A DNA stretch of 64,000 nt from NCBI GenBank assembly GCA_951406725.2, contig OX597815.1, forward strand, positions 203,918,001 to 203,982,000. Direction: 5' to 3'. A model generated the notes under the pieces. That model worked only from the letters and a program-made list of their open reading frames with translations, had not been told where the DNA came from and searched no databases. Made by a program: the position numbers and the translations under genes. This DNA comes from Octopus vulgaris. Taxonomy: Eukaryota. This document shows, one piece after another, positions 3,592 to 51,339 of the stretch (position 1 is its first letter; each line of letters begins with the position of its first letter).

Positions 3592-3974
3592 GTGGAGGCG
3601 CAATGGCCCAGTGGTTAGGCAGCGGACTCGCGGTCGTAGGATCGCGGTTTCGATTCCCAGACCGGGCGTTGTGAGTGTTTATTGAGCGAAAACACCTAAA
3701 GCTCCACGAGGCTCCGGCAGGGGATGGTGGTGATCCCTGCTGTACTCTTTCACCACAACTTTCTCTCACTCTTACTTCCTGTTTCTGTTGTACCTGTATT
3801 TCAAAGGGCCGGCCTTGTCACTCTCTGTGTCACGCTGAATATCCCCGAGAACTACGTTAAGGGTACACGTGTCTGTGGAGTGCTCAGCCACTTACACGTT
3901 AATTTCACGAGCAGGCTGTTCCGTTGATCGGATCAACCGGAACCCTCGTCGTCGTAACCGACGGAGCGCTTTCC
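3592..3974 (+). mobile_element. tRNA-derived SINE family C, full length, TSD TTATACATTTC
   Basis: GTGGAGGCGCAATGGCCCAGTGGTTAGG...GGTTTCGATTCCC tRNA-like head; 11-bp TSD at 3581-3591 and 3975-3985. Confidence 0.92.
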
Positions 3975-5010: not shown

Positions 5011-5397
5011 TGGAAGCATTCCGTCGGTTACGACGACGAGGGTTCCGGTTGATCCGAATCAAACGGAACAGCCTGCTCGTGAAATTAACGTGTAAGTGGC
5101 TGAGCACTCCACAGACACGTGTACCCTTAACGCAGTTCTCGGGGATATTCAGTGTGACACAGAGAGTGACAAGGCCGGCCCTTTGAAATAGAGGTACAAC
5201 AGAAACAGGAAGTAAGAGTGAGAGAGAGTTGTGGTGAAAGAGTACAGCAGGGATCACCACCACCCCCTGCCGGAGCCTCGAGGAGCTTTCGGTGTTTTCG
5301 CTCAATAAACACTCACAACGCCCGGTCTGGGAATCGAAACCGCGATCCTACGACCGCGAGTCCGCTGCCCTAACCACTGGGCCATTGCGCCTCCACA
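5011..5397 (-). mobile_element. SINE family C, full length, TSD ~CGTACACAT
   Basis: Near-identical reverse complement of 3592-3974. Confidence 0.92.
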
Positions 5398-21810: not shown

Positions 21811-22117
21811 AAAGAAGTTGAAGAAACAACTGTGATAATCGCATACATTTATGCATTCATTTATCATTATTTTTATACGTAAAATGTTTCCTCTTATTAA
21901 TCTATAATTCAACATTTACTCTAGAATCTCATTTAATACCATATTTCATACTTAACCTATTTGTTACCCAAACGTTCCTTTTCATTATTTTCCTTACTGG
22001 TTTCCTTCTTCAAAGATTTGGAAAGTGAAAATAGGCGTTATTAGTTAATATTCTACTCTTGATTTCTGAATATTTGTATATACTTTAGTGTTTGAGAAGT
22101 ATATTATTATGTGGCTT

Positions 22118-22502
22118 GTGGAGGCGCAATGGCCCAGTGGTTAGGGCAGCGGACTCGCGGTCATAGGATCGCGGTTTCGATTCCCAGACCGGGCGTTGTG
22201 AGTGTTTATTGAGCGAAAACACCTAAAGCTCCACGAGGCTCCGGCAGGGGATGGTGGTGATCCCTGCTGTACTTTTTCACCACAACTTTCTCTTACTCTT
22301 ACTTCCTGTTTCTGTTGTACCTGTATTTCAAGGGGCCGGCCTTGTCACTCTCTGTGTCACGCTGAATATCCCCGAGAACTACGTTAAGGGTACACGTGTC
22401 TGTGGAGTGCTCAGCCACTTACACGTTAATTTCACGAGCAGGCTGTTCCGTTGATCGGATCAACCGGAACCCTCGTCGTCGTAACCGACGGAGTGCTTCC
22501 AC
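22118..22502 (+). mobile_element. SINE family C, TSD ATTATGTGGCTT
   Basis: Full length, 12-bp TSD. Confidence 0.92.
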
Positions 22503-26074: not shown

Positions 26075-26429
26075 GTTGGGCATGTGTGCGTGTTTATACA
26101 TATATATATATATATTTCGATTTGGGATTTGGTTTGCAAGATTCTTTATGTGAGTTCGTAAATTTGAAAAATCTTCATGAAAGAAGGAAGCATTTTCAAT
26201 TGTTCAAAAAGTAACCATCACCCCAGTACATGGTCGCCAAATATGCATTTTAAGAACAAGTTGCGACTTAATATTTAAACTATAAAATACAATATGTTAT
26301 AACGTCATAGACATCGAAACATAAAATTACACAAAAATCTTGCATGTGCAAAACCGAAATCAGAATAAATATTCTTCAAGGCCAACCAGTATCAAGCCAT
26401 CTCATAACTAACCACCAGAAGGTATAGGT

Positions 26430-28430: not shown

Positions 28431-28535
28431 GTTGGGCATGTGTGCGTGTTTATACATATATATATATATATATTTCGATTTGGGATTTGGTTTGCAAGAT
28501 TCTTTATGTGAGTTCGTGTGTTGAAGCATATTCTA

Positions 28536-28735
28536 TTGTGTCTGGGGAGAGTCATTCTCTTTTGGTGCCTTATAATTTAACACACTCACCGGTAAAATTT
28601 CCACTTATTTCTTTTTTTATTTCTCTAAAATTTTCGCAGCAAAAATTTTAGGAAATTTTAAAATATGTGAAAATTTTAGTGGTGAGTGTATTAAATCATA
28701 AAGCACCAAAAGAGAATGACTCTCCCCAGACACAA
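28536..28735. mobile_element. Fold-back palindrome of the PLE-like family also at 42745 and 43393
   Basis: TTGTGTCTGGGGAGAGTCATTCTC... arms inverted about AAAATTTTCG (3' half of the HHR core). Confidence 0.7.
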
Positions 28736-29119
28736 CCTTGTGAATGACGTAGAGTTCCTAATTATAAAAACCGTAAAAGACCAACAAAATGTTTAGACTT
28801 ATATTTTCTGATATGCATAATCACCAGAAGGTATAGGTCATTTCCAATTACAGCGACACATCTCTTTGCCCTAATAGCAAACGATAACAGCGAAATACAC
28901 TGAAGAATTCTATAGAGTTTCACGATATTATCAACGAGACAGGCAGGAAAGATATGTTTATCCTCTAGGGTGACTGAAGTGACTAAGTATTGAGGGATGC
29001 ACAAGATGGCCAAGGGGAAATCATCTGCCTTGATGTGATGATATCGCACATTAAGGGGATTTACATCTGTTTGAATCTGTCAGTTATGATAACACGGTAG
29101 TGTCAAATATACTGGATGG

Positions 29120-29506
29120 ATGGAAGCACTCCGTCGGTTACGACGACGAGGGTTCCGGTTGAATCGAATCAACGGAACAGCCTGCTCGTGAAATTAACGT
29201 TTAAGTGGCTGAGCACTCCACAGACATGTACACCCTTAACGTAGTTCTCGGGGATATTCAGCGTGACACAGAGAGTGACAAGGCCGGCCCTTTGAAATAC
29301 AGGTACAACAGAAACAGGAAGTAAGAGTGAGAGAGAGTTGTGGTGAAAGAGTACAGCAGGGATCACCACCATCCCCTGCCGGAGCCTCGTGGACTTTTAG
29401 GTGTTTTCGCTCAATAAACACTCACAACGCCCGGTCTGGGAATCGAAACCGCGATCCTACGACCGCGAATCCGCTGCCCTAACCACTGGGCCATTGCGCC
29501 TCCACA
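29120..29506 (-). mobile_element. SINE family C, TSD ATACTGGAT
   Basis: Full length; (TCCA)n tail. Confidence 0.92.
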
Positions 29507-29787
29507 TACTGGATAAGCATAAAATCTCGTACGTAGGGAACAGGAATGCTAGCAGCTGATCGCACCACCACACTGTCTTAGCATAAAATCTCTCAACTCG
29601 CATTGTCTTAGACTGTCTTAGCATAACAACAGTATAAAACTGAAGTAAACGCACGACATAAGCATTTACAGATGTAAATAATAAGTATGACCATGTCATC
29701 ATGAAATGCAGGGTTCTATTATGGAGAACTAGCAAAAGGAAAACGAGAAAAGTGAGAATGAATTTAAACTTTTGTCGGTATTAAAAT

Positions 29788-36511: not shown

Positions 36512-36860
36512 ACCGGTCATAGGATCGCGGTTTCGATTCCCAGACCGGGCGTTGTGAGTGTTTATTGAGCGAAAACACCTTAAAGCTCCACGAGGCTCCG
36601 GCAGGGGATGGTGATGATCCCTGCAGTACTCTTTCACCACAACTTTCTCTCACTCTTACTTCCTGTTTCTGTTGTACCTGTATTTCAAAGGGCCGGCCTT
36701 GTCACTCTCTGTGTCACGCTGAATATCCCCGAGAACTACGTTAAGGGTACACGTGTCTGTGGAGTGCTCAGCCACTTACACGTTGATTTCACGAGCAGGC
36801 TGTTCCGTTGATTCGGATCAACCGGAACCCTTATCGTCGTAACCGACGGAGTGCTTCCAC
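36512..36860 (+). mobile_element. SINE family C, 5'-truncated, TSD TTGGAAAC
   Basis: Starts within the tRNA head; TSD on both sides. Confidence 0.9.
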
Positions 36861-37756
36861 CAATTGGAAACACTCTATATGTGAGTGTGTGTGTGTATGT
36901 AACTGCGCGTGTATATATGTGTGTGTATGTTTTAATACACTAATGCTGAAGTTTTTGCGAATAGATGGCACCGCATTTGTAAATCTTACCGTACGTTAAC
37001 TTACGTCATGTACTCACTTGATGTCCGGTTTCCCTTTCACCGTACTCTTAAAGAAAAAGAATACAAAAGACATCAGATCAGGTGAACGATGAAGGTGTTG
37101 CAAAGTCCCAAATATTCATAACCATCTTCATGAAGCGTATTATCACAGAAATTGCTTCCAATTCACGTAAACAGCCAAAGTACACAATGCTGCTAAAAAA
37201 AAATACATCACGTTTCATATTGTCCGTTAAACTTTATAGATATTGCAAGACTGGAGAAATTTAAACACTTATAGGAATCTCCTGCATGAGTATCAGCAAA
37301 TATGTTCCAATTACAGAAGGCAAAAATTACTTTTCTGCAGGGAACGTTCATACTCAAGAGTTATTGTCTCTAACATAACGATTCTCCTAGCAAACTTTTG
37401 TGTATCGGTTCGCATGAGGGCAAGTGACAAAAGTAAGTCCGTCATTAAAATCCACCGGATTTATAATGTGAGATTCAACGATTTACTGCATACATATGGA
37501 TACATTTAACAATTAAGGATAACTTCTTAATAAGGAATCTTAACAAGAAATTATCAGGTAGTTAGCGGGAAAAACCTCATAAGAGAAAAAAATTCGAAAA
37601 TAATTTTTTTCTTTTGAAAATATTAATTTATATTGTATAGGGGGCATTATTACACATAAATGCCTCACACTAAGAGGGACATAAGTCATTACTACCAAAA
37701 TTTCACTAATCGTACCTAATGCAGTTTTCGAAGCAAGACATTTAAAAAATGAATTT

Positions 37757-41929: not shown

Positions 41930-42175
41930 TGCTTTTAAAGACAAGGAGACGATATACATAGGTGAGACATCTAGAAGATCATTTGAGTCAGTATGAGGAC
42001 AGAAAACATTCCTCCATACTTTATCATTATGCAAAAGCCCATTGTGGAGACACACTGGGTCAACTTGACATCCCCATTTTACTCAAGCACCCAAAGTCCC
42101 CAACACTCAGACAAATACAGGAGTACGTCCTCGTAAATGAAACATACCCAGTACTAAATAGTAAATATATGTAGA
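41930..42175 (+). pseudogene. PLE GIY-YIG endonuclease fragment
   Basis: IYIGETSR then (frameshift) H..SSILYH...H...I.IL....LRQIQE..V....P.LN. Confidence 0.75.
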
Positions 42176-44010: not shown

Positions 44011-44229
44011 CGTTCTTTCTGTTTGTTTGCTTGAGTGTATGTGTGTTCACATATGTATGTATGTGTGTATGTATGTATGCATGTGTGTATGTATGTGTAT
44101 GTATGTATGTCTGTGTGTGTATGAATATATATATGTATGTATGTATGTGTCTGTGTACGTTAGATTCACTTCAACATTTAAATTTTTATTTGTTAAAATA
44201 TTTTCGTCGTCTTGAAACCGTACTGCACG

Positions 44230-44287
44230 GAATTTCGTCAGTGAACAGGTCACGGCTTCATAGCGACGAAAATATTTTGACAAATTC
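44230..44287 (+). ncRNA. Minimal hammerhead, G3-C8 core variant, within palindrome 44158-44314
   Basis: GAATTT(C)GTCA-GTGAACA-G-GTCACggcttcataGCGAC-GAAAATATTT-TGACAAATTC; 10-bp stem I with one bulge, AATATT palindrome. Confidence 0.72.
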
Positions 44288-44361
44288 AATTTAAATGTTG
44301 AAGTGAATCTAACGGTTTTTGTGTGTGTTTAAATGGCTTATAAACCACCTTCCACGCTGCA

Positions 44362-44407
<46 letters not shown>

Positions 44408-44494: not shown

Positions 44495-45013
44495 AAATAT
44501 AATCACAACTCTATGGTCGACATGCATAAGATCTGGTCATCAAATCTAAGTAGAGACTTCAAACTTGAAATCTTCAAAGCCACAGTCGAACCAATTCTAC
44601 TATATGGCTCAGAAACCTGGACGTTATCAAAGAAGCTTGAGAGGCGGTTGGATGGAACCTACACTCGCCTCCTTATGAGAGCTCGAAATCTCTCGTGGAA
44701 GCGCCATCCAACCAAAATGCAAATATATGGGAAACTACCACCTGTTTCATCTCTTGTGAAAGGTAGGAGAGTCCAGTTTGCTGGACATTGTTGTAGAGCT
44801 GAAAACGAGGCAATTTCTACTCTTCTCCTCTGGAAGCCATCTACTCGCAACACCAGTGGGCGCACACTCTCCTACCCTGATGTAATCTCCAGGGATACAG
44901 GCATCCAGCAACAGGACCTCCGTAATGCTATGATGGACCGTGAAGTCTGGCGTAGCATGGTAAATTCCATTGTCTCGACCACGGTCGAACAATGATGATG
45001 ATGATGATGATGA
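44495..45013 (+). mobile_element. RTE-clade LINE 3' end, open frame, (TGA)n tail
   Basis: KIWSS.L....KL.IF.ATVEPILLYGSETWTL...RRLDGTYTRLLMRA...FAGHC.RA; ends CAATGATGATG. Confidence 0.9.
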
Positions 45014-45314
45014 TTGGTCGACCCGAAATTATAGTAGAAGGCACTCGCCCAAGCTGCCAAGTGCTATGCAGTGCGGTTGAACCAGGGACCGTGTTGGTGG
45101 GAAGCAAGCTTCTGACTTGCGCCTATATGTATATCATTATTCAGTTCTCTTTCAGGATTTCTTGCCAATAGCCGGTTTCTTTTCTAGATCCAAGGCTCCT
45201 TCATGGGAATTTCAGCAACTTATGTATGTATGTATGTATGTATGTATGTATGTATGTATGTGTGTGTGTGTGTGTGTATGTATGTATTTATGTGTGTGTG
45301 TGTGTGTGTATGTA

Positions 45315-45367
<53 letters not shown>

Positions 45368-47126
45368 TTTGGTTTATGTGAATGCCTTCCCCTCTACATG
45401 GTCTAAAAGGTATAAATAAGAGTATATATGTATGTGTGCATGTGTATGTATATTTATATGTATGTGTTTTCAGGTATGTAGGTATTTTAAAAATAGCTTA
45501 CAAAGCAATGATCGTGCTCTGCATAGTTACAGGCTGCCCTTTGGCAAGGCATAGAACCCGTTCAGCCATACTGTCTGAGATCGGGCGAAGTCATGAGATT
45601 GCAGCATGGTCGATCGTGGAAATGAAACAGAAGAGCACAACCTATCCAACGGTGCTTCTTACATTGATGCCAAGGGGAGGAATCCTAAGAGATCGACGGT
45701 CAGGATCTCCAATCTCTATCAAGAGAATAACTGCAACGCATCCATAGGGGTGGCGTCAATGATTATGTAATCACCTAATGAAAGATTCAGTATTACTCAA
45801 GATCCCAATTCAAATTTATAAGGATAGATTTCGACGGCGACAAAGACATGGAAATCCGAGAAGACAGCAGAAAGGAAAATGTATCTCTCTCTTCCTCCCT
45901 CCCCCTCTCTCTTTCTCTTTCTCTCTCTTTATATATATATATACACACACACACATACATACATACATACATACATACATACATACATACATACATACAT
46001 ACATACATACATACATACATTCATACATACATACATACATACATACATACATACATACATACATACATACATACATACATACATACATACATACATACAT
46101 AGACGATAAGTATGCATCGTTGTTGCTGATATATTTTCTTCATAAAATTCCTTGAAGACACGGCATGGTACTGGGCAGTTTTCCCAAACTGTCTTCATAA
46201 TTTTTTTTTTCCTAAGCTATTTTCAAATCCTGTGCAATCTCAAAATACTCTTCTGGTTCTCGATCATGATAATTTCACTTTGGTAATTTAACTTCATGGT
46301 GCGATACACGGTATTTGGTCGTCCATCCATATAACAAGCGTACCTTCCATCGTCATCTAAAATGTTACCCCATTAATGAATCACTGCCTTTGCTGATTGT
46401 ATTCTTCATTATAGCTTCAATTATTTTTCATTTTTGTATTAATCATTGATATAACTAAGTTCAAGGATTCCCCCACGTAAGCCTGACATTCGCCAGCTCC
46501 ATTTCAACACAACGTTCAAATCTTATGCTAAGAGTGAGACTACTCTCTTGGCGCCATAAATGAATTTCAGCACTTTAAATAGCAGACAATTTGTTTTTAC
46601 TTATGATAGATAAAAATTGTTATCAATCTGGGTGCATGTTAAACTATACATGTGTGTGTATGGTAGTTTCTTGCGTTTTATCATAATTTGATTTTCTAGG
46701 AAAACATTTTGGCATTTTTGCGAAACAAAAAACTCTCGTTTATCTTTATGGAGCAACGGGCAGTAAGACAGAAAGTAGGTAGCCCAGATTTTATTTTGGT
46801 ATTTTTCATACTCTTACTATTTTACTTGTTTCAGTCATTTGACTGCGGCCATGCTGGAGCACCGCCTTTAATCTTTCATCTTTAAACTTCTGCAAATTGT
46901 TTGCAATATACTTTTTATTTTCCTTTCTCATTTATACAATAATCTCTATGGAACGAAACTAAATTAAAGAAGTGATGTATCAAACGAAAGGATAATACAA
47001 TACAAAGAATGAGAGTAGAAAAAAGATAGGACATCAGAGACAGTTTATGATAAAACAAACGGCTAAGACGAGTCATCATGACAGCAGAAAGGTGCAAGTT
47101 ACATAGAGTATCGAAGAGAAAGTCAA

Positions 47127-51142: not shown

Positions 51143-51339
51143 TCATACGGTTCTATATTTAAGAGATGAGGAATTATATACATTATTTACAATTGACGGA
51201 TATTTGTCCTCATTTTGTTTGTTGTTAACACAACGTTTCGGCTGATATACCCTCCAGCCTTCATCAGGTGTCTTGGGGAAATTTCGAACATGAGTTCTCA
51301 TTCCTAAGGTATTTTTCAATGTTGTTGTTGTTGTTGTTA

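Follow-up and report, generated by a model that had tools for sequence, protein, structure and literature searches.

Does the octopus genome carry hammerhead ribozymes in which the central core pair has been turned around? The question is raised by a locus in a window of 64,000 nucleotides of Octopus vulgaris DNA (contig OX597815.1, positions 203,918,001 to 203,982,000 of the forward strand; this whole stretch was analysed), in which GTGAACA stands in place of CTGANGA. The C3-G8 pair defines the active hammerhead fold, and at this locus positions 3 and 8 are G and C. The original prediction placed a hammerhead with an inverted G3-C8 pair at 44158..44314, and proposed that two changes which exactly preserve the pair suggest selection on ribozyme function in a family that CUGAnGA searches would miss. 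All motif parts that it named are present where it had placed them, GTGAACA lying at 44241-44247. The span does contain the motif, but it corresponds to a long inverted repeat, and the element extends to 44366. Sequence comparison identifies 44158-44366 as the end (pLTR) of a Penelope-like element (PLE), present as a short copy in head-to-head arrangement, with the following parts:

44158..44221, minus strand: inverted second arm, a truncated, antisense pLTR copy that starts with the 3' half of stem II and extends outwards
44225..44366, plus strand: sense arm, covering a PLE pLTR from about 5 nt past the inferred start to its tail-less end
44230..44240, plus strand: 5' strand of hammerhead stem I, with a bulged C in the window copy
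44241..44248, plus strand: core G3 U4 G5 A6 A7 C8 A9 and one extra G (44248) before 10.1
44249..44267, plus strand: stem-loop II, strands 44249-44253 / 44263-44267
44268..44277, plus strand: GAAA (44268-44271), palindromic helix III AATATT (44271-44276) and U17 (44277)
44278..44287, plus strand: 3' strand of hammerhead stem I
44333..44365, plus strand: remnant of the first 11 PLE ORF codons, with a one-base insertion, ending where tail-less arms end

The inverted arm is 87-88% alike to the unit of an intact element (L161) over 44158-44209, and the sense arm is 89% alike to the intact element end. Stem I of the window copy has 10 bp and the one bulged C, while stem II, which comprises 5 bp in the family, contains one A.C mismatch that is likely to reflect CpG decay. 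The copy carries older-subfamily letters, and its ORF start at 44333 is frameshifted. Cleavage is predicted after 44277 (UUU triplet), with numbering by homology. A relaxed descriptor allowing any Watson-Crick 3-8 pair, together with the stems and a palindromic helix III, matched the window twice (the GTGAACA site and a canonical site at 51267 on the minus strand), compared to no match in 200 dinucleotide shuffles. An Rfam search of the window returned nothing at gathering score, and its 18 weak hits included no hammerhead family. A minus-strand CTGACGA was rejected as the true core, being the reverse complement of stem I with a private change and having no hammerhead fold.

The window copy itself is not expected to fold as a hammerhead. 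Its inverted repeat (44158-44314) folds at -80.3 kcal/mol (z -14.6) and swallows the 3' half of the motif, with stems I and II having a pairing probability of 0.00 inside the palindrome and of only 0.12-0.23 when folded alone, whereas their predicted pairing in the intact element L161 is 0.93-1.0. The all-AU helix III had probability 0 in the fold of the intact element as a monomer, and the two-strand minimum-energy fold lacked an intermolecular helix III, though the palindrome is present and kept. These folds, like the UUU triplet at the predicted site, count against cleavage. Owing to the stem II mismatch and its seat in a -80 kcal/mol hairpin, the window copy is predicted to be a dead, palindromic fragment.

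The G3-C8 core extends far beyond this copy. The window stretch has 1,830 candidate copies in the 2.8-Gb genome, 40 of which were scored, and the exact motif pattern matched the genome 5,660 times (reversed control, 0). Leaving positions 3, 7 and 8 free gave 5,007 matches; among the first 100 listed of these, 96 had G3-C8, two U3-C8, and one each G3-G8 and G3-U8. Ten of all 5,007 were changed at both 3 and 8, and none carried C3-G8. G3-C8 is the consensus of this PLE family, as the original prediction had proposed, and GTGANCA and stems I and II are kept. The proposal that CUGAnGA searches would miss the family is likewise supported.

Relative to the hammerhead letter consensus C3 U4 G5 A6 N7 G8 A9, the motif departs at positions 3 and 8 (G and C) and retains a Watson-Crick 3-8 pair, U4, G5, A6, A9, G12, A13, A14, A15.1-U16.1 and H17. 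Helices I and II around the core are indicated by the L161 prediction and by paired changes across families, and the features of PLE minimal hammerheads are present as well (an additional nucleotide ahead of 10.1, G10.1-C11.1, a palindromic 15.2-16.2 and a seat in the pLTR). Contigs of four sequencing runs, whose status as RNA is a guess, cover the unit, and the G3-C8 core can be read in the loose-end consensus of runs X15 and X17 (organism labels C and D).

The element that carries the motif was traced through its protein. One pair of copies 2.5 kb apart encloses a GIY-YIG fragment, a protein with 7,830 candidate sites in the genome (150 scored), and all 11 long RT/GIY-YIG ORF loci examined have the G3-C8 motif some 1 kb past the stop. 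The longest open frame spans 1,025 codons and includes YVDD, a CX3CXXC linker and GIY-YIG. The GIY-YIG domain was matched by Pfam (E 1.8e-05); the Pfam RT model missed P0002, and RT was named for relatives of P0002. In L161, two motifs are found at a tandem spacing of 4,261 nt, and in the tandem copy the next ORF starts about 90 nt past the motif. The unit measures about 210 nt, its last 90 nt being the first 30 ORF codons. Like EN+ PLEs, the element combines RT and, C-terminally, a GIY-YIG endonuclease in one ORF, and has tandem and inverted pLTRs, an optional tail and a target duplication. We identify this recently active family as a PLE; its anatomy matches that described for PLEs (PMC3846280, PMC8557442), in which the pLTR holds the first ORF codons and an inverted pLTR and a tail occur (PMC3846280).

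Among named proteins, the element's best relative is an Octopus vulgaris prediction (57%). The element looks like a Nematis-like Penelope element, with linker spacing compared by eye: as in the Nematis EN+ PLEs in the rows of Figure S2 of PMC8557442, RT is followed by the CX3CXXC linker and then by GIY-YIG with, judged by eye, a short spacer, and an inverted truncated copy, a tail and (TA)n targets are shared with the Nematis elements described there. Unlike these, the octopus element has a long microsatellite-rich 3' UTR, and the likeness is one of motifs rather than of placement in a reference tree. A first GIY-YIG search led to a separate U3-A8 PLE family, which overlaps the unit in L089 through an insertion, and a sequence common downstream of L032, L042 and L094, considered as an ORF, is a target repeat instead. 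At L156:5480-6080 the inversion point lies deep in the ORF of long copies, where a 5'-truncated inverted copy abuts a near full-length one.

The motif resembles the PLE minimal hammerheads described by Cervera and de la Pena 2014 (PMC4209133) in being of type I, in the extra nucleotide between 9 and 10.1, in G10.1-C11.1, in its small palindromic helix III and seat in the pLTR, and in its thousands of solo and opposite-strand copies. Those hammerheads cleave weakly and as dimers (PMC4209133). The octopus family differs in its 3-8 pair, since the rows of Figure S3 of PMC4209133 contain, by our count, C3-G8 in 53 of 56, U3-A8 in 2, U3-G8 in 1 and G3-C8 in 0. Based on this spread, we infer that C3-G8 is ancestral. 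Natural U3-A8 variants (PMC3088659; Schistosoma PLEs in PMC4209133) resemble the octopus family in that the 3-8 pair covaries naturally. However, U3-A8 can be reached by two transitions via a U.G wobble, whereas G3-C8 needs two transversions via C.C or G.G, each reported in PMC8495972 as strongly inhibitory at 3-8. G3-C8 is known as an engineered rescue (PMC8495972; PMC3884650). In the hammerhead of an Anolis PLE, the C3G/G8C double mutant partly restores cleavage, for which protein is needed (PMC11167929). The octopus motif has the same core letters as that mutant and the same tail and ORF-start anatomy, but here a recently active family carries G3-C8 naturally. No natural G3-C8 family was found in the literature searched, outside which lie Lunse et al. 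2017 and Hammann et al. 2012, both of which may list G3-C8.

To place the swap among relatives, a canonical-core pattern with the same stem II base was used, which matched the genome 980 times. These matches are sister PLE families with C3-G8 and 43-53% protein identity in the endonuclease region. Across 12 family representatives, the 3-8 pair is C-G in nine and G-C in three, helix II is 95% paired, and 14 cells of stems I, II and III are changed on both sides compared to 6.2 in shuffles; U4, G5, A6, A9, G12-A14 and A15.1-U16.1 are invariant, and N7 and the loops vary. Relatedness among the rows, and their selection by patterns that fix 3, 8 and part of stem II, make the covariation counts partly circular, so that they provide support for selection rather than proof.

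An older G3-C8 lineage, first seen as seven matches, was also searched by downstream sequence alone, giving 30 loci of which 28 were aligned (L266 and L276 were excluded as near-duplicate or overlapping loci). It is about 65% alike to the young element downstream. Fifteen of its rows have a core recognisable by eye, with C8 in 13 of the 15 and G in nine, A in six and C in none at position 3; over all 28 rows position 3 reads G10, A14, C2, T1 and gap 1. The G5 position is likewise mixed (G13, A12), so A3 fits general G-to-A decay but may instead mark an A3 subfamily. N7 and loop II differ from those of the young element, and the palindrome (AATT) has another length yet is still palindromic. A distant Neptune-like PLE family in the genome has U3-A8 and is split off in the tree at 100/100, with the direction of the swap left open by that tree. 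At L122:906-4590 lies a young Neptune-like PLE family with a U3-A8 core, whose 781-codon frame occurs in many identical copies; a 359-codon frame lies upstream, and the 3' UTR holds tandem repeats. Further U3-A8 cores occur inside the sister-clade scaffold in L236, L237 and L238, which suggests that several changes of the 3-8 pair may have taken place here.

The argument from paired changes to selection thus holds in part. G3-C8 is the consensus, the stems are kept and relatives carry C-G, but single copies are not evidence, as their thousands reflect transposition and not per-copy selection. The argument therefore rests on the comparison between families, which points to selection on the motif. 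Alternatively, the motif may descend from a PLE hammerhead and no longer cleave, with its fold kept for another reason such as protein binding, promoter function or translation control and G3-C8 tolerated or a product of chance. We consider this less likely, given that both changed letters are Watson-Crick partners, that the core letters are invariant in the 12 representatives while N7 and the loops vary (a pattern partly fixed by the search), and that the palindrome varies in length and stays palindromic. It would nevertheless be in keeping with retrotransposed templates that retain the motif uncut, and with the Anolis PLE, in which hammerhead mutants had no effect on insertion in vitro, the hammerhead being dispensable for that step (PMC11167929). 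Naiad PLEs, as described in PMC8557442, spread without canonical hammerheads. Core promoter elements could also act as a constraint on the motif, which occupies +24 to +70 relative to the inferred start; by eye, the sequence at +28 did not fit a downstream promoter element.

The short copies bear on which RNA the element copies. Many have an inverted second arm without the tail of about 55 nt, and their centre is different each time. Thirty copies were chosen by their tail alone. Of these, 12 have an inverted arm and 10 an exact target duplication of 10-15 nt; in 23 the start lies no further in than +22, one or two of these being weakly aligned, and in none does it lie at +61, the start of the cleavage product. 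Ends of short copies fall near ORF codons 11 and 30. At least one direct pair (L019) occurs among the 60 loci listed, the other copies being solo or head-to-head, and a non-LTR retrozyme was rejected because the short hammerhead units are not in head-to-tail tandem arrays.

Long inverted arms, a very high copy number and the fact that copies without the ORF far outnumber those with it could also indicate that the short palindromes form an independent non-autonomous family, MITE-like or a master-copy SINE, with an inherited or accidental likeness to a hammerhead. This is highly improbable, since the arms are unequal, the centres variable and the duplications 10-15 nt long, and since RT/GIY-YIG elements end in the same sequence, which also overlaps the start of their ORF. 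An origin as a MITE or DNA transposon is largely refuted by the lack of equal terminal inverted repeats and of a short fixed duplication, and by the RT partner.

Reading the short copies as PLE ends, we asked what precedes their fixed start. Of the first 100 listed of 1,023 copies with an intact start, counted by hand, 64 have G as the preceding base, 21 have C, nine T and six A (most long copies fell outside the pattern). The long copies, which represent the template, have C or T. In short copies that were not picked in this way, the extra G is present in 12 of 16. Eight of these 12 can be explained from the inverted arm (four by script, four by eye) and two from the target duplication, so that in most cases microhomology with arm or target at the junction is a second way to read the extra G; a cap-derived C would favour such junctions, which is not proof. 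An extra G marks capping in full-length L1 (PMC11702581), and no report of a cap G for PLEs was found in the literature searched. The extra G before the fixed start is likely to be a copy of the cap, and the short copies probably arose as cDNAs of RNA that was capped and uncleaved, since a cap copy at the fixed start implies templates that were likely uncleaved at the hammerhead.

The same start would be explained differently if it were a 3' splice site, as with the Drosophila Penelope intron, which ends at helix I (PMC4209133). The region does resemble a branch point, a pyrimidine tract and a splice acceptor, with AG directly before the start (L121 minus strand 1655-1680; L161:5200-5222), and PMC4209133 provides the precedent. 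However, short copies retain the AG and share no upstream exon, the letters before the G vary, and a donor-like site of L121 is absent from L161, which makes splicing an improbable origin of the fixed start.

Taking the start as that of transcription, we propose the following mechanism. A capped transcript would start about 22 nt before the core, and the PLE protein would prime reverse transcription internally at two sites within the ORF, close to codons 11 and 30, using one strand of an AT-rich target or both; in the Anolis PLE, uncleaved RNA is the insertion substrate and RT starts at two internal ORF sites, defining the tail (PMC11167929). Copying back to the cap would yield inserts of 150-210 nt, and joining of two such copies, or fold-back, could generate the palindromes. 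Uncleaved templates suggest that cleavage is likely slow or late, and under slow or late cleavage the core could have crossed the inactive single-mutant step, and thus the two transversions, to G3-C8.

On the evidence of these comparisons, we think it probable that the locus is a short head-to-head pLTR copy of a family whose G3-C8 motif self-cleaves slowly in intact elements, as a dimer or helped by the element's protein, and that the window copy does not fold as a hammerhead. More tentatively, a recently active PLE family may run on a natural G3-C8 hammerhead kept by selection through several subfamilies, with the short palindromes as full-length cDNAs of capped, uncleaved, internally primed RNA. 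If so, C3-G8, U3-A8 and G3-C8 cores would coexist in one genome, G3-C8 would be a ribozyme class missed genome-wide, CUGANGA-based censuses would undercount ribozymes, and the short palindromes would be an in vivo footprint of the PLE mechanism. A natural, high-copy G3-C8 motif beside C3-G8 sisters offers a ready test of selection for cleavage and of compensation for a slower core, and the fixed start with its extra G allows a direct test of which RNA PLEs copy in vivo.

Other features of the window include a second minimal hammerhead at 51215-51275 on the minus strand (core 51267), with canonical C3-G8, the extra nucleotide and an ACGT palindrome; it is probably another PLE end and has related copies in L098, L228 and L229. 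Directly right of the element, the C-terminal part of a reverse transcriptase frame, presumably LINE-type, occupies 44505-44995 on the plus strand. A PLE remnant with a GIY-YIG fragment (39%) is found at 41968-42165, and two sister-family PLE ends at 26101-26159 and 28459-28539. Stretches at 45218-46101 resemble the repeat-rich 3' UTR of the PLE and may be low-complexity matches. A dispersed, young repeat occurs in both orientations at 3618-3933, 5062-5397, 22102-22460, 29116-29521 and 36581-36864; its copies measure about 300-360 nt and are 94-98% alike.
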